The position numbers were made by a program, and so were the translations under genes. A DNA stretch of 64,000 nucleotides from a virus: the IMG/VR virus record IMGVR_UViG_3300001472_000003, positions 85,501-149,500 of that record; one strand, 5' to 3'. Under the pieces are notes generated by a model. It searched no databases. It saw nothing but the letters and a program-made list of their open reading frames with translations, and was not told where the DNA came from. Shown here in pieces: positions 37,906 to 50,477 of the stretch. Numbering within the stretch: the stretch's first letter is position 1; each line of letters starts with the position of its first letter.

Positions 37906-38589
37906 ATGAATTTTGTTTGTGTTAATTTTGGCAACATGTACCATAATGCATATGTAGACGCTCTTTATTATATGATATTTATGCGTAATAAAATAAACAG
38001 CTTTACATGTATTACTGATAGAAAAAGAAATATTAGAAAAGAGATTAACCAAATAATAATTAGTGATGACGAATACGAAGGCGCATGGAATAAACTTTAT
38101 TGCTTTCATGATATAGATTTGCCGAATGAATTTGTATTATTGGATTTAGATATTGTATTGCAATCTAAATTTAAATTTAATGAACTAAAAGAAATAATTG
38201 ATAACAATAAGTTATTATTTGTTAATGCAGATTGGGCTATAGATAGTAGACCTTATCAGCCTACCCAAATAAATTCATCTTTACTGTATATTAATAAAAA
38301 TTTAAAATCCTATAATAAAATTAGAAAATCTATAGACAAGGGAGATTGGTATCCATATGCTACTATGGATAGATATTTATTTAATATACTTAATAAAAAA
38401 GAAATAGGTTATTTTGATTCATTAAAAATATATTCATATATGGATAATGAATATATGGAAAAAAATTATGATGTATGTCTTTTAAATAAATTTGATGGCA
38501 AAATATTCGATTATATTATAAGTAGTAACTGGATATTTAAATACTACCCAATTCATCTTTCATATCCATCCACATATCATATTGATTAA
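37906..38589 (+). CDS. GT-A fold glycosyltransferase
   Basis: VCV.FG..Y...YV..L, F.CITD, WNKL, LLDLDIV (DxD) and INSSL motifs. Confidence 0.75.
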   Translation: MNFVCVNFGNMYHNAYVDALYYMIFMRNKINSFTCITDRKRNIRKEINQIIISDDEYEGAWNKLYCFHDIDLPNEFVLLDLDIVLQSKFKFNELKEIIDNNKLLFVNADWAIDSRPYQPTQINSSLLYINKNLKSYNKIRKSIDKGDWYPYATMDRYLFNILNKKEIGYFDSLKIYSYMDNEYMEKNYDVCLLNKFDGKIFDYIISSNWIFKYYPIHLSYPSTYHID

Positions 38590-39199
38590 TAATATATGAT
38601 ATAGTTATTCTGCTGCCAGATTTATTAGCCGCACAATGCCAAACTTTTTTATTGCCCTCATCATGACCACCAAAATACCCAGTTTTTACATTCCAACCAA
38701 TACTATCTTTATGTATAATATATTTTTTAGCACTTAAATCATATTCTTCAAAATATCCACCACCACAATCACTATATGTAAATAATACATTATATCCTCT
38801 AGCATTAGCATTATGATGCCATCCTATATATCCATTTACGGGGTAATATGTTAGCAAAGAATTGTTAGATGCACCTAATTCCGATGTCATATTATTAGCA
38901 AGACTCATGACTTTATCTCTATTATTTAATTTATGAGCACCTACACTTGTTCTATAGTCTATAAGTAATGAACATTCAGGAAAGCCTTCGTGCTTATTGC
39001 CATTCATAAGCCATTGATGGTAATCATAACTTGTTCCACTTGTAATATCCATTCCATCATTATACTCTTTACCATCTCTACCTAATCTTTCATCATATGC
39101 TATATCATATAATGTTTTAGTGTCTTCAGATAAAATATTATCTTTAATATCATTTAAAATATGTAATATACTTTTATTTTTAATCTCTATCTTGTCCAT
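38537..39199 (-). CDS. 2OG-Fe(II) oxygenase-like (DSBH) protein
   Basis: YP.NGYIGWHHN ... WHCA ... RITISY; HxN...H plus RxT/S pattern. Confidence 0.65.
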   Translation of the reverse strand: MDKIEIKNKSILHILNDIKDNILSEDTKTLYDIAYDERLGRDGKEYNDGMDITSGTSYDYHQWLMNGNKHEGFPECSLLIDYRTSVGAHKLNNRDKVMSLANNMTSELGASNNSLLTYYPVNGYIGWHHNANARGYNVLFTYSDCGGGYFEEYDLSAKKYIIHKDSIGWNVKTGYFGGHDEGNKKVWHCAANKSGSRITISYIINQYDMWMDMKDELGSI

Positions 39200-39914
39200 C
39201 TATCCACTCTTTCTTTAAAGTATGATGCATTATAACTATATCAGATTTAACTTCAGATTTTTTATATGTATTAACATAATTCCATCTTGCATCGTCTTCC
39301 ATTATATCTATTTTCATTTTATGATTTTTTATATTTAAAAGGAACCACCATGCGAATTGGTCCCATTGTTTAACACTATTTAAATATTCAGGATATTTAA
39401 TAGTAAATTCTTTAGATGATTGATACTTAAATTGTTTATACCAAATATCTAAAAATTTTAAAATATGGGGCCTTTTCCAATACCCGAATATACCACAATG
39501 ATGAATCATTTTTGCATTGTCATTTTTTTCTTTTGTTAAAAATACTTCTGCTGCAGCATATTTACGAATTGAGGTAGTACATATATCTGCTTCATCCGAT
39601 AATTGATCAAAGATTAAGGATATATCTTCATGCATAATTTCCGTATCTGCATCTATATAAAATGTTTTATCATATGGAGTCTTAGATAACATGTACAGTT
39701 TAGTACGAATATTATATGGACAATCAGTTATAATAGAATCAAATACACCAGAGTTATTGGCTATTGTCCTCCATCGTTCCTCAGTATATAAAGTAATATT
39801 TGCTTCAGGGTAATAATCTTTTAAAGATTCTGCAGAATATATTGCACTATGAAGATATGGTATTTTGCACGTAGCAGCATACATAAACCCATTTTTATTT
39901 TTTATTTCGTTCAT
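39180..39914 (-). CDS. GT-A fold (GT8-like) glycosyltransferase
   Basis: A..SA.SLK, KL......PYDKTFYIDAD (DxD), WDQ, RWN and I.HH motifs. Confidence 0.8.
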   Translation of the reverse strand: MNEIKNKNGFMYAATCKIPYLHSAIYSAESLKDYYPEANITLYTEERWRTIANNSGVFDSIITDCPYNIRTKLYMLSKTPYDKTFYIDADTEIMHEDISLIFDQLSDEADICTTSIRKYAAAEVFLTKEKNDNAKMIHHCGIFGYWKRPHILKFLDIWYKQFKYQSSKEFTIKYPEYLNSVKQWDQFAWWFLLNIKNHKMKIDIMEDDARWNYVNTYKKSEVKSDIVIMHHTLKKEWIDGQDRD

Positions 39915-40308
39915 TAATTATACCAACAATTGTGTTTACTAAAACTTCCATTTTATTTTTGGATTTTCGTATAGAACGTTTAAATTCTTTGTTGGTTGTA
40001 TTTTTTACTTCATCCATCTCAAATGCTTCAAGTTTTGCCATAAACAATTCTTCACCATCTATTCTTGCTTTATTTTCAACATCACGTTGATTTTTTCTGC
40101 TTTGCATTTCTCTAAATATGCGCAAAGATTCATCAGTATTTTTATCTATTTGTTGGATTGTATATTGTGATATAAGTGATTTATAATCACTATTTCTTTC
40201 ATCTCTAGGTATAATAATTTTTACCTTATTACCATTATCATCAACACTATTAACTTCTATTTGTTTTTTTTCTTCTGGTATTAACCATTTGGGTTCTATA
40301 TATCTCAT
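39895..40308 (-). CDS. Hypothetical helical protein (possible fibre chaperone)
   Basis: LF.AKLEAFE..EVKN...K..IRKSK motif; between the fibre gene and the GT. Confidence 0.6.
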   Translation of the reverse strand: MRYIEPKWLIPEEKKQIEVNSVDDNGNKVKIIIPRDERNSDYKSLISQYTIQQIDKNTDESLRIFREMQSRKNQRDVENKARIDGEELFMAKLEAFEMDEVKNTTNKEFKRSIRKSKNKMEVLVNTIVGIINERNKK

Positions 40309-40311
40309 AAT

Positions 40312-41715
40312 CTATGCTATCCTCAACCATAATGCAATTGTTGTAATACTGTTTTTAGAACTTGATACAGTATCACTTGTGAAATTACCTGTATAATTAC
40401 CACTATATTCTGCTGTAAAATCCCTAGAATATGACCCAGTAAACATACGTGTATACTCTCTATTATATATGCCTGTAAAACTACCAGTATATTGCCTATT
40501 ATAAGATCCTGTATATTGCCTATTATACGATCCAGTATACTGTCTATTATATGTTCCCGCATAATAGCCAATATATGATCCTACATATGAACCTGTAAAT
40601 CCAACTGGGCCAACTCTAGTATAACTTCCAGTATAATAATTGTAATGATAGCTAGGCCTTCCATTAAAATATGAAGTACCTACATGACGGGCATATGTTC
40701 CGGTAAAATATCCAGTTATTTGTTGTGATGTATAAGTTCCAGTATAACTTCCAGAATAACTCCCCGAAAAATTTGTTGTTAATGCACCTGTATATTGTCC
40801 TGTATATTGGCCGGTATATTGGCCACTATAACTTGCTGTAAAATCTCTATTATATACTCCTGTATATTGTCCAGTAAAGCTTCCTTGATATTGACCAGTA
40901 AATAATCCAGTATATTGTCTATTATATGTTCCTGTAAATGATCCTATGTATGTATTTGCCGCAACTTGTTGCCTTGTATCAATAAATGTATCACCTACTT
41001 GAACCCATGTTCCAGTTGTTGGTGGTATTGTGGCTAACGAATATCTACCCACTTCTGTAGATGCAATTCTATTTCTATATCTATCTGTTAATGTTTCTAT
41101 TTCAACATCAGTCATTTCTTGCATTGTGCCATCTATACCAAGCTTTAATGGTCTTATTACTGTTGGTAAAGAATCATTTGTTTTTTTCCAAAGATAAGAT
41201 GTGTTAGAAGAACTACCCCCACTACCTCCAAATGTATCTGTTAATGATGCAACTGATACCCAAGTGCCTGAAAATATTGTAGCGGGAGTTGCTGTAGAAA
41301 GATAATATTGACTTATAGATGGTGTTGATGTATTAGCTAAATTAGATGAAATATAATTCATAATATTGTTATCTAAATTATTACTAGACATTGGTCTAGG
41401 TTTTTTATTATCTAATTCTAAAGGACTAACAGTTGTTTCTGATACTGAGACAAGATTCTGTGATAAAGTTGTAGTAGTTGTAGTTATTTGACCATTTGCT
41501 GGATGTGTGCCAATAGACTCCACTCTTGCAGTATCTGAAAAATAACCTATTGTAGTACCAACACCTGCTATATTTAATGCACCTGTACTATTATCAGACT
41601 CTAATGATACTTTTCTTAATACTAAGTGTGTGATATAATCCATATCTGTATTAGACATTTCTTGAATATCAACTGAAGTATTTCCAGTTCGTATTAATTT
41701 TAAAGGGTTGCCCAT
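40312..41715 (-). CDS. Structural protein with three PLK..QEM base repeats and a (Y/F)xGx tetrapeptide needle
   Basis: About 190 aa of near-strict 4-residue aromatic periodicity inserted in the third base repeat. Confidence 0.75.
   Translation of the reverse strand: MGNPLKLIRTGNTSVDIQEMSNTDMDYITHLVLRKVSLESDNSTGALNIAGVGTTIGYFSDTARVESIGTHPANGQITTTTTTLSQNLVSVSETTVSPLELDNKKPRPMSSNNLDNNIMNYISSNLANTSTPSISQYYLSTATPATIFSGTWVSVASLTDTFGGSGGSSSNTSYLWKKTNDSLPTVIRPLKLGIDGTMQEMTDVEIETLTDRYRNRIASTEVGRYSLATIPPTTGTWVQVGDTFIDTRQQVAANTYIGSFTGTYNRQYTGLFTGQYQGSFTGQYTGVYNRDFTASYSGQYTGQYTGQYTGALTTNFSGSYSGSYTGTYTSQQITGYFTGTYARHVGTSYFNGRPSYHYNYYTGSYTRVGPVGFTGSYVGSYIGYYAGTYNRQYTGSYNRQYTGSYNRQYTGSFTGIYNREYTRMFTGSYSRDFTAEYSGNYTGNFTSDTVSSSKNSITTIALWLRIA
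40484..40555. repeat. Three imperfect 24-bp tandem repeats (YNRQYTGS); related 12-bp repeats at ~40787-40823
   Basis: ccagtatattgcctattataagat / cctgtatattgcctattatacgat / ccagtatactgtctattatatgtt. Confidence 0.85.
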
Positions 41716-41727
41716 TATATATTTTCC

Positions 41728-44082
41728 TTATTGTGGCCAAGCCACATCGCCATTTGCATATAAAATTTCTAATTTAGCACCAGTACTATCAACAATACGC
41801 GCTGCAGTGCTTAAAACAATATTAGCATTAAAATTGGTTACCGCATCAAATGTGTCAATAGTCTCTTTTAATGTAGTTCCACTTGATAATCCTATTTCTA
41901 ATGTATTATTACTATTTTTCCAATCAAGAGAAGCAACACCAGCTACAGAAACATCAGATACACTTGTTATTCTGCCTTTATTATCTACTGTAAATTGAGG
42001 CACAGCAGATGCACTACCATATGTTCCTGCAACAACTCCCGAAGTAGCTAACCTTGCTGCAACTAAAGTACCAGAAGATATATTTGATGCATTTCTATAA
42101 TATGAACCTTCTTGACCATCTAATAAATCTGCATCTAATCCACTAGTAGCACCGTCATTATTCTCATGCCATATTTGATAAGAATGTGTAGCATTAGAAC
42201 TAATTACTAATCCACTATTACCAATACCAGTATTAGCTACTCTTATATTTATTGGCGTAGTACTATCTGCATCTGTGTCAGCAATATGGACAGTACCATT
42301 ACCAGAAATATGTAAAGTATTAGCTTGAACGTTCCATCTTTTAGTAGATGATCCTAATGATATTGCATTTGTAGTAGGAATAACATTGTTAGCAAAATAA
42401 CCTTTTGTATCTATAATATCTCCATTATTATCACCTAAAACTGTGTTTCCGGCAACAGAAAAATCACTTGTTACAGAAATTTCTTCGATAGTGGCATTGG
42501 AAGATATAATTGATTGTGCGTGCACATTTTGCCAATTTTTTGCAGATGATCCCAAATCATAAGTAACATCCTCGGTTGGTATTATATTAGTATTTACAGT
42601 GGCATTAATAGTTACTACACTATCTGTATTTGCTCCAATTTGTGTATCGTTTAGAATTGTAAAATCTTGTGCACTTGTATTAGAAATAAAATTAATATTT
42701 CCAACAACTTCCATATCTTGCTCTACTCTTAAATGGCCTTGGATTACTGTATTAGACCCACCTATTGTTACATTAGCACCAATATTAGCAGCCCCATCCA
42801 CTTCTAAAGATCCAATCGTATCAATATTGCCAGTCGTAGCTGATACTTCAAATGCATTAGCAGTACTATTAGCTGACACAGATATACCATTATTTGCATT
42901 TATTGATCCACTAGCACCAATGTTGCCACCACTAACATTAACACCATTTGCTGATATTTGTCTGGTTGTTAAATAATTAATAAAGCCATTAGCATATGCT
43001 TTAGATGAGGTGCCAATGTTATATGTATTAGTAGCACTAGGAGCTACTTGTCTAGTAGTTGTATTAGATGTAATAGTAACAACACCAGTTACTGATAAAG
43101 CAGAACTTAAAGCAACATTATTTGTTACTGTTAATTGATCAGAAATACTGACATTTCCAGAAGTATCAAGTGTACTGGACATAGTAACTGCCCCAACTAT
43201 GTTTGCCGTGTTAGAGAGCGTTAAAGCGCCAGTAACTGCTAATTTATCGCCAATACTTACATTTCCTGTTGCAGTAGTTATGCCTGTAATACTAAGATCC
43301 CCACCAACAGATAAATCATTAGATAAAGCTACATTAGAGGTTATATTAACTTCGCCTCCAGCAATTGAGACATTAGCAGATGTAATATCAACCTGTGTGG
43401 ATGATATACTTGTATTAGAATTAGTTATATCTACATTTGCAGATGTTATAGTTACATTGGAGCCTACTGCAAATTCGCCACCAGTGATTTCTGTGTTTGA
43501 TGATGTGACACTTACATTACTTGTTGTCACTAAATTGCCAGAATCAACTATTAAATCACCAGAGATAAATGTATCAGATGTTATATCTACTGTTGTGGAT
43601 ATGATATGTATATTAGCTCCAGATAAACTAACATTTGATGTTGATGTAATTTGTTTGCCCACAATATGGGTATTTGTATTATTAATTGTTATATTAGCTG
43701 TAATGGTACTATTAGCACCACCTATAACAGTATTGTCTGTTGTAGTTACTCTTTTGTTAAATAAAACAGTGTTACCTACAATAGTATTAGAATTTATATT
43801 TAATGTTGAATTAGAAGCAAAAGTAGCATTTGATCCTATAGTTAATAAACCACTTGAATCTACAGTACCACCTCTTATTATATCTTTAGCAATTAAAGTA
43901 TTGGCACTAAAAAAACCATTAACATGAGCATTGCCTGTAGTTTGACCTCCTGTACTATTTGCAAATGTTGTTATAACAACAGTGCTCATATCATATACTA
44001 TTTGATTAGTACGTTCAATCCACGATGCGAAGGTATCTGTTTGGGTAGCTACATTAGCACCTATATATTTTGACTCTGACAT
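41728..44082 (-). CDS. Tail fibre protein (beta-helical shaft)
   Basis: TDTF.SW..RTN N-terminus, YDLGS..K.W repeats, NDG..SGLDADLLDG and GTYGS..AVPQFTVD.KGRIT motifs. Confidence 0.8.
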   Translation of the reverse strand: MSESKYIGANVATQTDTFASWIERTNQIVYDMSTVVITTFANSTGGQTTGNAHVNGFFSANTLIAKDIIRGGTVDSSGLLTIGSNATFASNSTLNINSNTIVGNTVLFNKRVTTTDNTVIGGANSTITANITINNTNTHIVGKQITSTSNVSLSGANIHIISTTVDITSDTFISGDLIVDSGNLVTTSNVSVTSSNTEITGGEFAVGSNVTITSANVDITNSNTSISSTQVDITSANVSIAGGEVNITSNVALSNDLSVGGDLSITGITTATGNVSIGDKLAVTGALTLSNTANIVGAVTMSSTLDTSGNVSISDQLTVTNNVALSSALSVTGVVTITSNTTTRQVAPSATNTYNIGTSSKAYANGFINYLTTRQISANGVNVSGGNIGASGSINANNGISVSANSTANAFEVSATTGNIDTIGSLEVDGAANIGANVTIGGSNTVIQGHLRVEQDMEVVGNINFISNTSAQDFTILNDTQIGANTDSVVTINATVNTNIIPTEDVTYDLGSSAKNWQNVHAQSIISSNATIEEISVTSDFSVAGNTVLGDNNGDIIDTKGYFANNVIPTTNAISLGSSTKRWNVQANTLHISGNGTVHIADTDADSTTPINIRVANTGIGNSGLVISSNATHSYQIWHENNDGATSGLDADLLDGQEGSYYRNASNISSGTLVAARLATSGVVAGTYGSASAVPQFTVDNKGRITSVSDVSVAGVASLDWKNSNNTLEIGLSSGTTLKETIDTFDAVTNFNANIVLSTAARIVDSTGAKLEILYANGDVAWPQ

Positions 44083-44285: not shown

Positions 44286-47200
44286 TTATACAGATAGTGC
44301 TAGTGCTCTATAATCATTTACTTTAGGAATAATATTACTACTAGTAGTTGTTAATACAATTTTTATTGCAAATGATTTATATTCATCATATTTAACACCA
44401 TTATCATCAAAATAAGAAGCTACAAATTCATTTTGAGGGTCTTTAAATATAGCATGATCATGAGATAAAATTTCTAACTGTGTTCCTGCTTTAGTGAATC
44501 CAAGTTCCTGGTCAACAATAATTACTGATGTGTTAACTGAGGCAACTCTAGTTATTTGATAATCTGTATTAGAATCAGAATTAACAATTTTCAATAATGT
44601 TCCTGTTCCAACAAGATTGGCAGATCCATTAGAGAATCCAGGAGTATTACCAGATACACTTATTGTTGATACACCATTTGATGTAGATCCAACACCAACA
44701 AGAGGTGTTGTATTGGGACTATTTGGAAGATCATATTCATATTCTATAACATCAAATTCATTTGATGTTGAACTAAAAACGTCATTACCTAAATTTGTTA
44801 ATTTAGTCCATTTTTTATTATTAAATTCCTGATTATCAGCTGAATTTAATCCTTTTAAAAATACATGTACATCTGTTCCTGCAGGTCTATATGCAGATAC
44901 AAATATTTTCAAATCTTCAGCATCTAATCCTTCTTTTAAATTTACAGTTCTAGAAATATATTTACAAACAGATGACCCATTAGCATATGCTTCATTACTA
45001 ATTGTATTATTAATGTCTGATTTAAATGCCAATAAACTTGTTGATTGGGTATCTAATGCAGGAGATAGTGTAATTTTACCAGTTGATAAATTCATCGTAG
45101 TTGTTAATGTTTTATTGCCTGAATTGTCAACAATTTCATTACTTTTACTATATACTGCTGGTTCAAACGATAATATTCTGTTATTATCATTAAATTTCAT
45201 ATCTACTATTGTTGTGTTAGATACACTGTCTGCAGCTGTTAATGTAGATGTACCATTATTTGTAATATTACCAGCAAATGATAATCTATACATTAAAGGT
45301 TGGAAATAACTTACAATTTGATTATCAACCGTTGTTATAACTGCATTAGCATTTGAATCAGCTGCGATTAATGTATCACTATTTGCAAATAAATATGTTG
45401 AATTTGATGCATTACTATTAGTTAAATGTAAAACACCATCATTATTGTTGTAGTAACTTACGCTACCTGAAGGTGTTATTTGGTAATTAGCTATAGTATT
45501 AGAAAATAATGGTTGCCCCTTTATTGAAAGTTGTGTATTATTCGCTATACTGTTTACAGATAATACTTGAGATCTAATAGACCCATTAGAATCCGCACCG
45601 ACAACCACAATTCTATCACCAACACTAAAATCCGTTGTGAATGTAGTACTTGTTCCAACTAAATTACTACTTGTTGCGGACATACTTATCGTTTGTGCAC
45701 TAACATTAGCTCCAGATTTATATACTAATTCACCATTAAAAAATGATCCACTTATATCTTGGATCTTTAAAAATTCTATATCAGGGTTATTGAATATTGC
45801 TGTTCCAGATGTAGAAGAAAAATCACATCTATATATGTTTACTTTTAAATTTTCATCTTGTGTAGCTGTCCATGTTCTATTATTTGTTGAAAGAAATAAA
45901 ACACCATCAAAGCTATCTTGTGTTATATTATCTGATCCTGTTGTTAAATCAGATTGTCCAATTTTTGACACCCATAATTTATAACTTGGGTTATTGCCAT
46001 CTGGTTTTATGATTACAGCATATTCATTACCTTGCCTCATAAACAATGGAGAGTCAAATGTTACAGTAGTGGATATAGATCCATTATTACTTGTGCTAAC
46101 TTCAGCTGAAGTTAAATGTTTTATTCCAAAAGGTAATATTTCTTGAGCAGGTGTTCCATTAAATACTGTTCTCATTTCTATAGTAACACCTTCAACTGCA
46201 TCTTTTTCTGCAAAAAATAAATCTATTTTAGGTACAAAGATACCTTCTTCATCTTGTGAAATACTAGGTCCAATATAAAATGTTTGAGCTAGTGGGTCAT
46301 CTACACCGGCACCTGGATCACCTCCATTACCTACACCACCAGTTTCTCCACCTCCTCCACCATCGTCACCACCATCATCTTGTTGCTGTTGCCATGTCAC
46401 CTGTCTACTTCTACGGGATTCTACTGATCTTGATGTCTCAATTGTTGTGTTTGACCATCCTATTCTATTAAAAGTTGGTTGTCTTGTACTAATAGACGAA
46501 CTACCTTTTTCGATAGAAAAGTTATATGCATTATATGCGGTTAAGCTTATTGATGTTGCATCTTTCAATGAGGTAGAAAATACTTCATCAGCTACTGTTA
46601 ATATTCTCTCACCTACAAAGAATGTTTGTGATGGAATTCTGAAGCTACCTGCAACAACACCAGCACCATCTGCGGTTATTGTTCCTCCAAATTCACCTAT
46701 TTCTTCTATATCATTTTCTGTTATATCTGCACCAGTTCCTGTAATTATAGCAGCTCTGCAATGTTGATCTACAGCTGTGTCATCAAAATATATGTAGTGT
46801 CTAGTATTAGGTCTTAAACCGTGTACTACAAATTTTACAATTCTTGATCTCATATATGGTTGCATAGCCATATCAGTCATATATTCGCCAACTTCTACTG
46901 TTGATATATTACTATCTGATATATTCAGAAGTTGTCTTGTTTCTCTAATTGTTCTATCTCTTATAACTTCAAATGTATTTGTGGTCTCAGTTCCGCCACT
47001 ATTGCCATTATTCCAACCGGTAGTTGTTGAATTCAATAAAACATCTCGTGAAACATCATTTATAATATCAAATCTTCTTTGGTTTATTACGTCTATTTTA
47101 TTTAATTCTCCAATTAAACTTTCAAATCCAGATGTCATATCAATTACTACATTATTAACTTTTTCTGGGTTTATAGTAGTATCATAGAAATTATCATAGT

Positions 47201-50200
47201 TTGGAAATAATGTCATTGTGCCATTATATCGATGAAATAACTCAGTAGCATTTCTGGATTTTGTAGCATATGGATTAGATAATACTAAATTAGCAGAATA
47301 ATCATTTGTTATAAGATCACCTGTCTTTGTAACATTTGAACTCAATGAACTATTAAATGATAAATCTAAATTTACTTGTTCAACTTTTGGAATTAATTGA
47401 GCTGCAGCTTTATCAACACCTGCTTTATATTCTAAGCTATTAATATTACCAATACTTAAATCTTTAAATGCATCTACCAATATACCATTTTTAAATCTAT
47501 CTAATCCATTAGAACCCTTTATTATTAAATCGGTGGTTTGTTTTTCTAATAAATTTAAAGAAGTATAATATTCAAGTCTTGATAATCTTTCTTCCATATC
47601 ACCAATATCAGACATTGTATATCTTCTAATTTGCCTTACACTTGTTTTAATACCATATGATGGTCGTTTACTTGTAATAGCATCTGTTATACTTAATGAT
47701 GGATATACTGGCACAGATACTGTAGCTATTATCATACCTGTATCTGGTTTTGTTGGAGGAACAGGAGATTCTGATGCTAATCCTTTAATAACACCTATTT
47801 GTCCAGTAGATTCAATATGCAGCATATCAATCCTAGAAAGATAATGTTTAAAATCAGCTACAAATTCTCTTCCAGGAGCTACAAATTTGTCATTGCTAAA
47901 TGATATTGTATTTGATGGATTTACTGTCGCTGATACAATTGTATTCGCATATACTCCAGTATTAGCTGTCATAGGTCTAAAATCTATTGAGTCCCTTAAA
48001 TCATATTGTTTGCCTGATGTAGGAGAATTAAATAAAGGAATGTCTTCAGTCCTAAATTGGGTATTATCAATACTACCTGAATCTGTCGGAGCATATGAAT
48101 CTATTGAAAAAAATCCGGAGCCTCCACCAGTACTATCTTTTTGAAATGCATTAAAGTGAACCAATAACTTATCTGAAGCAGATATTGTTAAAGATGAACT
48201 TGATTTTTGTTCTAATGTAGATATACCATAATATGCATCTTTTTGACCTGGATTTATAGCAAAATGAGAAGTTACATCTGTTTCCGTATTTGCATATGTA
48301 GAACCTTTATATACGGCTATTAATTGTAAAGCATCTGGCACACCCAGAGACCATGGACCAGATGTGCTATTTACATTATTAGAAGTATCAATTTTTGTAA
48401 ACACTTCTCTTAAATTTTTATTTACTTGAACAGCACTGTCTATTTTGACAGGATATATTACCGCAGCATTAATAGTTGATGATAATGACTCATCTAAATT
48501 AATTGTCATTTTTTGTTGGCTTTGTGATATTACAACATTTGCAGATCTACTAGACAATGGTATTGCGGTATCTTTTGGAAAATTTCTATAATGTGCAGCA
48601 TTATTAAGAGTAGAACCAAATGCAGATTCGAGAACTATATGAGTCGTGTTTGTTATAGCAGCAATTCTAGAAGATGATGATTCTCCTGATATTGATATAT
48701 AGTCACCTACATTATATTCTGATACAAAATTAGTTCCATTACCTTCGATTGTAGTATTGGAATGTGAGGTTGCTGTGCCAGTTCGCGCTACAGTATTAGC
48801 TCCTGTCAATGATGTAACAACAATTTGGCGTTCTTGTACACTGTTAAGTGTTGAATCATCTGTAAACGGAAATTTGCTATTTCCAGATAATACTATTTCT
48901 AAAGAACCGTTACTTGCAAATGTTATAGCATCATTCATATCTCTGTGTATAAATGTTGTATTATTAATACCTTGAGAATTGCGTATAGTTGATACTCCGG
49001 TAGATCCTAGCGGATGTACACTAACTGCTAAACCACTATCTTTTAATACAGCTTTATTTGATTCCAGTAATATATCAGCTACAAAATCATAGGTAGAGGT
49101 AAAATGGATTGATCTAACACTACTAAATTGTTTTCCTGCAGTCATTGATATATCAAACAAATATACTCTATATGTTGCTGTGGGAGTGCCAGGAACACCT
49201 TCATGATTCTCTACTGCTCTAACTCTAGCAGTCCCTATTGAATTAGGCAACGATGATGGTGCTTCTGCATATTCACTAGTTATACCTTGATAAGCCGCTG
49301 AATGTAATGTTATTTGACTTCCTGATGTATAATTTAACGAACCAAGCAATTCATTTACTATTATATAATTGCCAAAATTTGGAGTTATTGTTTGATTTAA
49401 TTTATCTACTTGAGTTGTAGCTTTTTCTACAGGAATTCTTGTTGCGTCATGTAATTGAACTCTATATCCATCAACATATGCCAGACCTGCACCAACAACC
49501 ATACTTGTATGTGTTGTATTACTGACAATATTCTCTGATCTTATAGCAAAAGGTTTAACAACATAATCACCACTTTCATCATTAGTTCTTGATGCCAACT
49601 CTTGACCTAATCTATTATATTGTGTAGTTTGATTTCTAGTTATGGTTTGTCCACTTTCAAAATCAACAAGAGAAAAGAAGTTATTAGCAGTAGTTTTTTG
49701 TGCTTTAGTTTTAACAACTAATTTAGGTTCTAATTTTAATCTAAATGCGCCTGGAGCATTTTCATTATTAAATCCTTGGGCATTATCAAGTAATGATGTA
49801 TCAATAGAATTATTAACTACACTTTCTACTACCTCAAAGCCAACTGATAATTCATGAGCATTGGCAGTATATTTAGATACAATTATATCTTGTGGTGCGA
49901 CGGATACAAAATGCCCTTTTTGGAATATTATACCATCATTAATTTTAAACATATATGAGTTACCGATTGCACTATGAGTAGAATTAGCTACAGTAACATT
50001 AGCTATAGGATCATTATTAGCATACAAAACCTGAAGTACTTCATTATTAGCAAATTTCTTTTCGCCACCAGTTCCAGTATTTCGATATTTTATATAAAGA
50101 GTATTTAAATCAGGTGTTTGTGACTCAAAACCAGATGATTCATTTATAATAGTCGCGGTTAAATTAGATGCTGCAGATACTAACACCTGGTTAGCATAGT

Positions 50201-50477
50201 TAGATACTATAGTGTTTTGTCCATCAGCTTGTAAATCATTTATTTTAATATAATCAATGCCTTTGTCAAAATTAAATGTACAACCCTTTACAATAGTACC
50301 GTCAATTAAAATATTAGCACCAAATTTTTCTATTTGATCTTGCAATATTGTTTGTAATTGGGTAAGTTCCCTTGCTTGTACAGCTACGCCCGGTCTAAAT
50401 AAAACTTTATGAAAATTTTTAGTTTGATCGAAATCTTCATAATACGGACTAATGTTTAAATCTGTTTGTATTGGCAT
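44286..50477 (-). CDS. Large baseplate/virion structural protein (DUF4815/VrlC-like)
   Basis: DLNISPYY.DF, VLFRPG.AVQARELTQLQ, RYTM.DIG..E.R...LEYYTSL, RFKNG..VD.F and DPLAQTF. Confidence 0.85.
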   Translation of the reverse strand: MPIQTDLNISPYYEDFDQTKNFHKVLFRPGVAVQARELTQLQTILQDQIEKFGANILIDGTIVKGCTFNFDKGIDYIKINDLQADGQNTIVSNYANQVLVSAASNLTATIINESSGFESQTPDLNTLYIKYRNTGTGGEKKFANNEVLQVLYANNDPIANVTVANSTHSAIGNSYMFKINDGIIFQKGHFVSVAPQDIIVSKYTANAHELSVGFEVVESVVNNSIDTSLLDNAQGFNNENAPGAFRLKLEPKLVVKTKAQKTTANNFFSLVDFESGQTITRNQTTQYNRLGQELASRTNDESGDYVVKPFAIRSENIVSNTTHTSMVVGAGLAYVDGYRVQLHDATRIPVEKATTQVDKLNQTITPNFGNYIIVNELLGSLNYTSGSQITLHSAAYQGITSEYAEAPSSLPNSIGTARVRAVENHEGVPGTPTATYRVYLFDISMTAGKQFSSVRSIHFTSTYDFVADILLESNKAVLKDSGLAVSVHPLGSTGVSTIRNSQGINNTTFIHRDMNDAITFASNGSLEIVLSGNSKFPFTDDSTLNSVQERQIVVTSLTGANTVARTGTATSHSNTTIEGNGTNFVSEYNVGDYISISGESSSSRIAAITNTTHIVLESAFGSTLNNAAHYRNFPKDTAIPLSSRSANVVISQSQQKMTINLDESLSSTINAAVIYPVKIDSAVQVNKNLREVFTKIDTSNNVNSTSGPWSLGVPDALQLIAVYKGSTYANTETDVTSHFAINPGQKDAYYGISTLEQKSSSSLTISASDKLLVHFNAFQKDSTGGGSGFFSIDSYAPTDSGSIDNTQFRTEDIPLFNSPTSGKQYDLRDSIDFRPMTANTGVYANTIVSATVNPSNTISFSNDKFVAPGREFVADFKHYLSRIDMLHIESTGQIGVIKGLASESPVPPTKPDTGMIIATVSVPVYPSLSITDAITSKRPSYGIKTSVRQIRRYTMSDIGDMEERLSRLEYYTSLNLLEKQTTDLIIKGSNGLDRFKNGILVDAFKDLSIGNINSLEYKAGVDKAAAQLIPKVEQVNLDLSFNSSLSSNVTKTGDLITNDYSANLVLSNPYATKSRNATELFHRYNGTMTLFPNYDNFYDTTINPEKVNNVVIDMTSGFESLIGELNKIDVINQRRFDIINDVSRDVLLNSTTTGWNNGNSGGTETTNTFEVIRDRTIRETRQLLNISDSNISTVEVGEYMTDMAMQPYMRSRIVKFVVHGLRPNTRHYIYFDDTAVDQHCRAAIITGTGADITENDIEEIGEFGGTITADGAGVVAGSFRIPSQTFFVGERILTVADEVFSTSLKDATSISLTAYNAYNFSIEKGSSSISTRQPTFNRIGWSNTTIETSRSVESRRSRQVTWQQQQDDGGDDGGGGGETGGVGNGGDPGAGVDDPLAQTFYIGPSISQDEEGIFVPKIDLFFAEKDAVEGVTIEMRTVFNGTPAQEILPFGIKHLTSAEVSTSNNGSISTTVTFDSPLFMRQGNEYAVIIKPDGNNPSYKLWVSKIGQSDLTTGSDNITQDSFDGVLFLSTNNRTWTATQDENLKVNIYRCDFSSTSGTAIFNNPDIEFLKIQDISGSFFNGELVYKSGANVSAQTISMSATSSNLVGTSTTFTTDFSVGDRIVVVGADSNGSIRSQVLSVNSIANNTQLSIKGQPLFSNTIANYQITPSGSVSYYNNNDGVLHLTNSNASNSTYLFANSDTLIAADSNANAVITTVDNQIVSYFQPLMYRLSFAGNITNNGTSTLTAADSVSNTTIVDMKFNDNNRILSFEPAVYSKSNEIVDNSGNKTLTTTMNLSTGKITLSPALDTQSTSLLAFKSDINNTISNEAYANGSSVCKYISRTVNLKEGLDAEDLKIFVSAYRPAGTDVHVFLKGLNSADNQEFNNKKWTKLTNLGNDVFSSTSNEFDVIEYEYDLPNSPNTTPLVGVGSTSNGVSTISVSGNTPGFSNGSANLVGTGTLLKIVNSDSNTDYQITRVASVNTSVIIVDQELGFTKAGTQLEILSHDHAIFKDPQNEFVASYFDDNGVKYDEYKSFAIKIVLTTTSSNIIPKVNDYRALALSV

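Follow-up and report, generated by a model that had tools for sequence, protein, structure and literature searches.

A marine T4-like phage gene predicted to encode a triplicated beta-prism-like base and a hairpin stalk with matched tetrapeptide-repeat arms

Results

The DNA analysed here, hereafter the window, is a 64,000-nucleotide stretch (positions 85,501 to 149,500) of IMG/VR virus record IMGVR_UViG_3300001472_000003, a complete 149.5-kb viral genome with direct terminal repeats that belongs to an uncultured marine T4-like phage. The genome carries the T4-like myovirus markers major head protein, portal, sheath, large terminase, gp5-like hub and baseplate wedge subunits. On the minus strand of the window, the wedge genes are followed in order by a giant protein, a tail-fibre protein, the gene that is our subject and that we call the needle gene, three small genes and more fibre genes, and a fibre-assembly-like gene also lies downstream of the needle gene.

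44286-50477, minus strand: DUF4815/phrog_358 giant protein, 2063 aa, upstream of the fibre and needle pair
41728-44082, minus strand: tail-fibre protein upstream of the needle gene, 784 aa, given as context (phrog_25747 tail fibre, 1e-15)
40312-41715, minus strand: needle gene, 467 aa, from the open reading frame list; probable beta-prism-like base plus tetrad hairpin

The needle protein has no Pfam or PHROG family at E<=0.01 and no NCBIfam match. Its gene sits in a tail/baseplate module in the query genome, and a like neighbourhood surrounds its homologues in the metagenomic loci L002, L003, L006, L007 and L011 and in Phage C48C1; we infer that its product is a virion protein of the baseplate/tail-fibre module. 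A DUF4815/phrog_358 giant lies upstream of the fibre-plus-needle pair, directly or a few genes away, in four of five related metagenomic loci (L002, L003, L007 and L011), and was not seen within the L006 flank. An 82-aa open reading frame at 40323-40571 (minus strand), in another frame of the needle's returning arm, was rejected as an artefact of repeat DNA.

The first ~255 residues of the needle protein together with the last 19 make up three homologous repeats of about 90 residues, and the third of these is split by a long hairpin of tetrapeptide repeats, or tetrads. The parts of the gene are as follows.

41428-41715, minus strand: base repeat 1 (residues 1-96); profile-profile (hhalign) probability 96.8% with repeat 2 and 97.3% with repeat 3; AlphaFold2 pLDDT about 85-94
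41155-41427, minus strand: base repeat 2 (residues 97-187), with a short terminal hairpin; hhalign probability 98.8% with repeat 3, E 9e-17; AlphaFold2 pLDDT about 90
40951-41154, minus strand: N-terminal part of base repeat 3 (residues 188-255), ending in the DTRQQ hairpin entry; from hhalign and AlphaFold2
40723-40950, minus strand: outgoing arm, 19 tetrads (residues 256-331); from the parse, and a strand in AlphaFold2 at pLDDT about 30
40684-40722, minus strand: QITGY bulge (residues 332-336) and two tetrads (337-344); the bulge faces GPVG in the zipped register
40636-40683, minus strand: tip, 16 residues (345-360), with a turn at N351-G352-R353; DSSP strands 336-350 and 353-366, pLDDT about 65
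40600-40635, minus strand: two tetrads (residues 361-368) and GPVG (369-372); from the parse and the zipped register
40372-40599, minus strand: returning arm, 19 tetrads (residues 373-448); from the parse
40315-40371, minus strand: closing strand of base repeat 3 (residues 449-467, ending in LWLRIA), a conserved C-terminal anchor; pLDDT 89-94

The closing-strand anchor is conserved in 217 of the 256 proteins examined. When a first model was compared with solved structures by exhaustive structural alignment, beta-prisms of the MABP type ranked first, with Z scores of 6.8, 6.4, 5.7 and 5.2 against 2.9 for the next match; the superpositions cover ~115 residues at an rmsd of 3.6-5.3, and all Z scores stay below 8. 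A second, independent model placed the same MABP beta-prism domains first (Z 5.4, 5.4, 4.8, 4.7 and 3.3). Over the matches with Z 4.7-6.8, identity is 8-11%. The top-ranked structures are those of Mpf2Ba1 (PDB 8B6V), Plu-MACPF, MVB12B and perforin-2/MPEG1. With Foldseek, neither model matched any structure in PDB or BFVD, and no sequence-profile match of the base to a known beta-prism family was found in Pfam or NCBIfam. The triplication of the base provides the three-fold internal pseudo-symmetry that characterises the MABP, or beta-prism, fold, and it thus fits the assignment. With Z scores in this middling range, the modelled base probably has an MABP-type beta-prism fold. The sequence-only reading had placed the needle where the other base repeats carry only a short hairpin, and the insert indeed replaces the terminal hairpin of base repeat 3.

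Residues 256-448 parse as 19 tetrads, the bulge QITGY, two tetrads, a 16-residue tip, two tetrads, GPVG and 19 tetrads, just as that reading had it, with one small correction: 40381, which it gave as the end of the tetrad region, is the first residue of the last tetrad, and the true end is 40372. The repeat period is four, with an aromatic residue at position 1 in about 100% of cases and glycine at position 3 in 81%, and strict agreement with (Y/F)-x-(G/R)-x is found in 33 of the 38 tetrads of the long arms. A collagen-like fibre (period 3, G-X-Y) and a pentapeptide-repeat fibre (period 5) were considered, and both are ruled out by the period of four. The tip is the longest non-periodic stretch of the query and is centred exactly at the predicted mid-point, and the QITGY and GPVG irregularities lie exactly opposite each other about the turn N351-G352-R353. 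The whole hairpin can be zipped with a single one-residue bulge, giving 25 Tyr/Phe-Gly and seven Arg-aromatic cross-strand pairs with no Tyr-Tyr and no Gly-Gly pair.

The DNA repeats of 12 and 24 bp that had been claimed for the arms are likewise present in both. Tandem Repeats Finder reports 12- and 24-bp repeats at 40730-40919 in the outgoing arm and 24- and 48-bp repeats at 40484-40581 in the returning arm, and the identity of the 12-, 24- and 48-bp repeats is 73-92% in each arm. Tandem repeats of this kind within each arm indicate that separate recent duplications have occurred in each.

AlphaFold2, run with a 50-sequence alignment, models one long strand over residues 244-350 and another over 353-465, with the connection at 351-352; this is the single long hairpin that structure prediction had been expected to give. 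Confidence is high in the base (pLDDT ~85-95), intermediate in the tip (~65) and low in the arms (~30), and a 320-aa homologue is predicted with a like topology, at pLDDT >90 in the base and ~43 in the hairpin. Because arm pLDDT is low, the hairpin topology is predicted but its geometry and register are unreliable. If the arms do adopt ribbon geometry, the ~97 residues of each would extend for roughly 30 nm, in keeping with the ~30 nm suggested at the outset.

The modelled arms may also need partners or oligomerisation in order to fold. A precedent for such an arrangement is the tip of the T4 long tail fibre, gp37, reportedly described by Bartual et al. in 2010 (PDB 2XGF). Two, three or six copies of the needle protein might bundle their hairpins into a multi-stranded beta-needle resembling gp37, which is a trimer with a needle domain (PMC6957217). 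A protein that folds only together with partners could well show low confidence when its arms are modelled as a monomer, and the hairpin's sticky Tyr/Gly face could supply a core. An out-and-back path within an intertwined assembly requires equal arms just as a lone hairpin does. In gp37, as predicted for the query, each chain extends to a tip and then returns, which obliges the outgoing and returning strands to match; gp37 contacts the host through residues at its tip, as is proposed for the query. However, the gp37 needle is an intertwined trimer with seven His-coordinated iron ions and no tetrad repeat, whereas residues 256-448 of the query hold only two isolated histidines (H344 and H357) and no HxH, the motif expected for such iron sites. 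The needle protein has no sequence relation to gp37 (no Pfam/PHROG relation at E<=0.01), and its base is already a single-chain pseudo-threefold body that gives no obvious reason to trimerise. We therefore regard an oligomeric needle as unlikely, and prefer a hairpin extended from a single-chain base.

To see how the insert varies, homologues were collected by a word-indexed search (227 homologues) and by an exhaustive search with the base only (329 clusters at 50% identity). Inserts were delimited by the conserved hairpin entry (DTRQ) and exit (closing strand), which gave 213 distinct complete inserts ranging in length from 4 to 1209 residues. Arm lengths were compared in the 69 distinct homologues with exactly one copy of the tip motif [LIVM][YFL][YF][AGS]G. 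The difference between the two arms (arm 2 minus arm 1) is constant to the residue in 47 of these, a number that random motif placement would put at 0.66, and it stays within four residues in 56; among single-motif homologues with inserts of up to 300 residues the arm lengths correlate at r = 0.994. The exactly mirrored proteins have arms of 8 to 136 residues in 29 different lengths, which implies at least 28 length changes matched in both arms, and in 38 of the 47 the arm length is a whole multiple of four. The first 48 proteins follow this rule, and so do 22 further representatives at 50% identity. In inserts lacking the motif, the longest non-periodic stretch falls at a relative position of 0.4-0.6 in 80 of 132, where 20% would be expected. 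The far outliers of the arm test are long proteins; off-centre motif matches in very long proteins were set aside as chance, the real irregular tips being central in those inspected (P0049, P0091 and P0099).

Arm lengths thus co-vary strongly, as the sequence-only reading had asked, but its stricter view that a homologue with unequal arms would speak against the hairpin runs into one such case. The closest homologue, P0001, whose base is 87% identical to that of the query, lacks 84 nt, or seven tetrads, from arm 1 only, so that 12 tetrads stand against 19; this is one exception beside about 56 conforming proteins, and the shortened arm may be genuine or may stem from faulty assembly. Arm mismatches of 6-18 residues occur in a few other homologues. 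The matching rule is therefore strong without being absolute, and bulges can take up small mismatches. Because arm lengths co-vary and AlphaFold2 draws a single long hairpin, the two arms must grow together, and the earlier proposal that both expand in step is borne out. The sequence comparisons strongly support an out-and-back beta-hairpin stalk of this kind, which would lengthen in both arms together.

Matched arms also bear on the idea that there is no defined hairpin at all and that the insert is a beta-solenoid or a disordered, FUS-like Tyr/Gly/Ser low-complexity region. Low arm pLDDT is compatible with that idea, as is a composition resembling [G/S]Y[G/S] low-complexity segments, which are FUS-like. 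Yet a solenoid or a disordered chain requires neither a central tip nor equal arms, and with 47 of 69 proteins exactly mirrored against 0.66 expected, and the irregularities of the hairpin mirrored about its tip, both are disfavoured to the point of being extremely improbable.

The register of the proposed hairpin can be examined in the homologues as well. The information that mirrored positions share is highest at the tip and drops with every shift of one tetrad, which indicates that the bulges are mirrored too, and the best mirror register contains 857 Tyr-Gly pairs against 9 Tyr-Tyr pairs. Covariation between the arms at polar positions is weak, with a small peak one tetrad off the best overall register; at that peak there are no large-large pairs where four would be expected, a difference that is not significant after multiple tests. 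Two alternatives with tyrosine opposite glycine remain for the exact register. A further claim, that every Arg-bearing tetrad faces one bearing Gly or Ala, fared less well: it is true at the offset of 19 used by the sequence-only reading and false at the exact mirror offset of 20. Such Arg-Gly size complementarity holds in 4 of 13 offsets and in 18% of shuffled arms, which is the level of chance, and no depletion of large-large pairs between arms was found across 36 homologues. In the Tyr-opposite-Gly register of the query, arginine faces an aromatic residue and not glycine.

Pairing of this kind has parallels in short sheets. Merkel and Regan (1998) reportedly described an "aromatic rescue" of glycine in beta-sheets, and the Koide laboratory is said to have studied aromatic cross-strand ladders in single-layer beta-sheets with OspA-based self-assembly mimics. 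In these systems, tyrosine beside glycine across antiparallel strands stabilises sheets that have no hydrophobic core, which is the same pairing as in the query register; they are nonetheless short sheets, natural or engineered, whereas a repeat fibre occurring in nature, as proposed here, would run to as many as hundreds of residues.

The family forms a graded series. Its smallest members have almost no insert (4-28 residues), and several of these keep the tip motif alone; in others each arm has a tetrad or two, and the series continues to inserts of hundreds of residues. Its longest relatives carry extra globular domains at the centre of the insert. Within the query's clade, the base is 74-87% identical and the arms about 50%. 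Conservation is lowest in the tip: P0002-P0004 share 26-32% identity with it, while their bases are 74-77% identical to that of the query. A conserved base and a variable tip point to a base that anchors the protein and a tip that lies distally. On the grounds of this divergence and of the globular domains found at the same place in larger relatives, we suggest that the tip contacts the host. The opposite polarity would have the tip plug into the virion and the beta-prism body, resembling a lectin, serve as a distal host-binding head on an adjustable stalk. Lectins and lipid binders are common among beta-prism folds (PMC6753088 for MABP), and the canonical L-Y-Y-A-G tip motif is conserved in many distant members, as would be expected of an attachment site. 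However, it is the base that is most conserved and the tip that is most variable within the query's clade, and large relatives add their globular domains at the tip and not at the base. Members with almost no hairpin also exist, in which the base must attach by itself. A tip buried in the virion therefore seems highly unlikely, and we retain a distal tip.

All members of the 329 clusters are viral or metagenomic where their taxa are known, and none has a name or a Pfam/PHROG assignment. Among cultured phages, a tblastn search with the base only gave no match, megablast with 20 kb gave no match, and the whole protein matched only Phage C48C1.

Directly behind the needle gene lies a conserved cassette.

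37906-40308: cassette region behind the needle gene
39895-40308, minus strand: helical partner, 137 aa, chaperone-like; in L002, L003, L006, L007 and C48C1 a homologue sits immediately after the needle gene or genes
39180-39914, minus strand: candidate GT-A-type glycosyltransferase, 244 aa; from synteny and an invariant D88-x-D90
38537-39199, minus strand: possible Asp/Asn-hydroxylase-like cupin, 220 aa; from synteny and an Atlas match (score 0.93)

Homologues of the cassette stand behind the needle gene, or behind its last tandem paralogue, in the five other loci compared by sequence (L002, L003, L006, L007 and C48C1), even with needle proteins that have as little as 26-38% identity to the query. 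L011, the locus of P0001, was compared by size and has the same gene sizes and order. The helical protein is 137-164 aa long whatever the length of the needle; it is thus no lengthwise partner, and a role as a chaperone or in binding the base is more likely. Single-sequence searches of PDB with the neighbours of the needle gene gave no match. A profile of the 244-aa protein matched only glycogenin in PDB (E 0.018), and four of six members of its family have a weak Glycos_transf_2 match, so that leads for this ~240-aa transferase candidate are weak matches to glycogenin/GT8 and to GT2. The ~220-aa protein has no Pfam match and no PDB match by single sequence or family profile, and its sole functional lead is the Atlas resemblance to viral "Asp/Asn beta-hydroxylase" clusters. 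A 114-aa fibre-assembly-like gene follows in three loci, and an opposite-strand glycosyltransferase (phrog_1962) often follows the cassette. The synteny is conserved and places a GT-A-like enzyme, as judged from its sequence, beside the needle gene. Because this cassette and its candidate glycosyltransferase follow the needle gene, we suggest that the needle, rich in Tyr, Thr, Asn and Arg, may be modified after translation.

Discussion

In regard to how the needle protein is built, we consider it likely that a triplicated base carries one drawn-out hairpin of matched tetrad arms that ends in a host-contacting tip. In this explanation, the body would be a single-chain, internally triplicated, beta-prism-like domain, and the terminal hairpin of its third repeat would have grown into a long two-stranded antiparallel beta-ribbon as (Y/F)-x-G-x tetrads were added on either side. 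Across the ribbon, aromatic residues of one strand would face glycines of the other, giving one Tyr/Gly face and one Thr/Ser/Asn face. The stalk would hold a variable tip away from the base, where it would most likely contact the host surface. Stalk length would evolve by slippage of the 12- and 24-bp repeats, the survivors being mainly those with an equal tetrad change in both arms. This account starts from what the sequences show, namely the parse, the triplication of the base, arms matched throughout the family, a mirrored register and a conserved gene neighbourhood, and it presumes a ribbon geometry, a location in the virion, a distal orientation of the tip and host binding.

The MABP domains offer a functional analogy for such a design. 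In MPEG1 the MABP domain carries an "extraordinary elongated beta-hairpin", and the tip of this hairpin, which is hydrophobic and basic, binds membranes (PMC6753088). As proposed for the query, the MABP proteins (MPEG1/perforin-2 and bacterial MACPF; PDB 6U23, 6SB1, 2QP2, 8B6V and 3TOW) have a pseudo-threefold beta-prism body with one hairpin extended, though perhaps not the equivalent one, and the hydrophobic/basic tip of that hairpin touches the target surface (PMC6753088). Unlike MABP domains, the query has an added helix in each of its repeats. Furthermore, known MABP hairpins are tens of residues long and are not built from repeats, whereas hairpins of the query type reach hundreds of residues.

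Known phage fibres are trimeric beta-helices, beta-spirals, coiled coils and the gp37 needle. To our knowledge, a stalk made from one hairpin of a globular domain and stretched by a four-residue repeat is not among them. Literature searches on cyanophage tetrapeptide-repeat fibres, cryo-EM of T4-like cyanophage baseplates, long Tyr/Gly beta-hairpins and C48C1 found no description of the design. The matched tetrad runs point to an undescribed kind of length-tunable protein fibre. We would go further only tentatively, to a new class of fibre in which a free-standing two-stranded beta-ribbon, tens of nanometres long, would be held only by a ladder of tyrosine over glycine and perhaps hydroxylated or glycosylated by the products of the neighbouring conserved genes, those for the glycogenin-like transferase and the hydroxylase-like protein. 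If this is true, ribbon length would be set by compensatory repeat expansions in two strands, a protein counterpart of the compensatory base changes in RNA stems.

The arms stay matched in inserts from 4 to more than 1200 residues, and a folding constraint is thereby readable from the sequence alone. The design is also a possible scaffold for rigid or semi-rigid protein spacers of chosen length. The family is abundant and unnamed, and it probably has a part in how abundant marine T4-like phages recognise their hosts. The cassette ties the needle to the many unexplained glycosyltransferase and oxygenase genes of those phages.

Several relatives depart from the simple plan. No closing-strand anchor was found in P0011, P0014, P0102 and P0108; in P0011 and P0014, which were read directly, the reading frame breaks within the tetrad array and the C-terminal end reads as a translation of the repeats in their alternative frame. 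Slippery DNA may have led to errors in sequencing or assembly here, or these may be genuine frameshift variants. P0018 (415 aa) has two tip-like motifs, Q-R-F-F-S-G-Y and Q-N-F-F-S-G-F, with tetrads between them, and may form two successive hairpins instead of one. At L007 (8001-14913), tandem needle paralogues of 791 and 1499 aa precede the shared cassette. Finally, Phage C48C1 (Kyanoviridae; OQ984149.1, 141011-151054; also L001, 7983-17434, and L010, 1-3055) has a 3347-aa open reading frame that begins with the base and ends with the closing strand found in the query. Tetrad and octad repeats fill the thousands of residues between these two, broken up by several globular domains, and the protein is an extreme and possibly branched member of the family.
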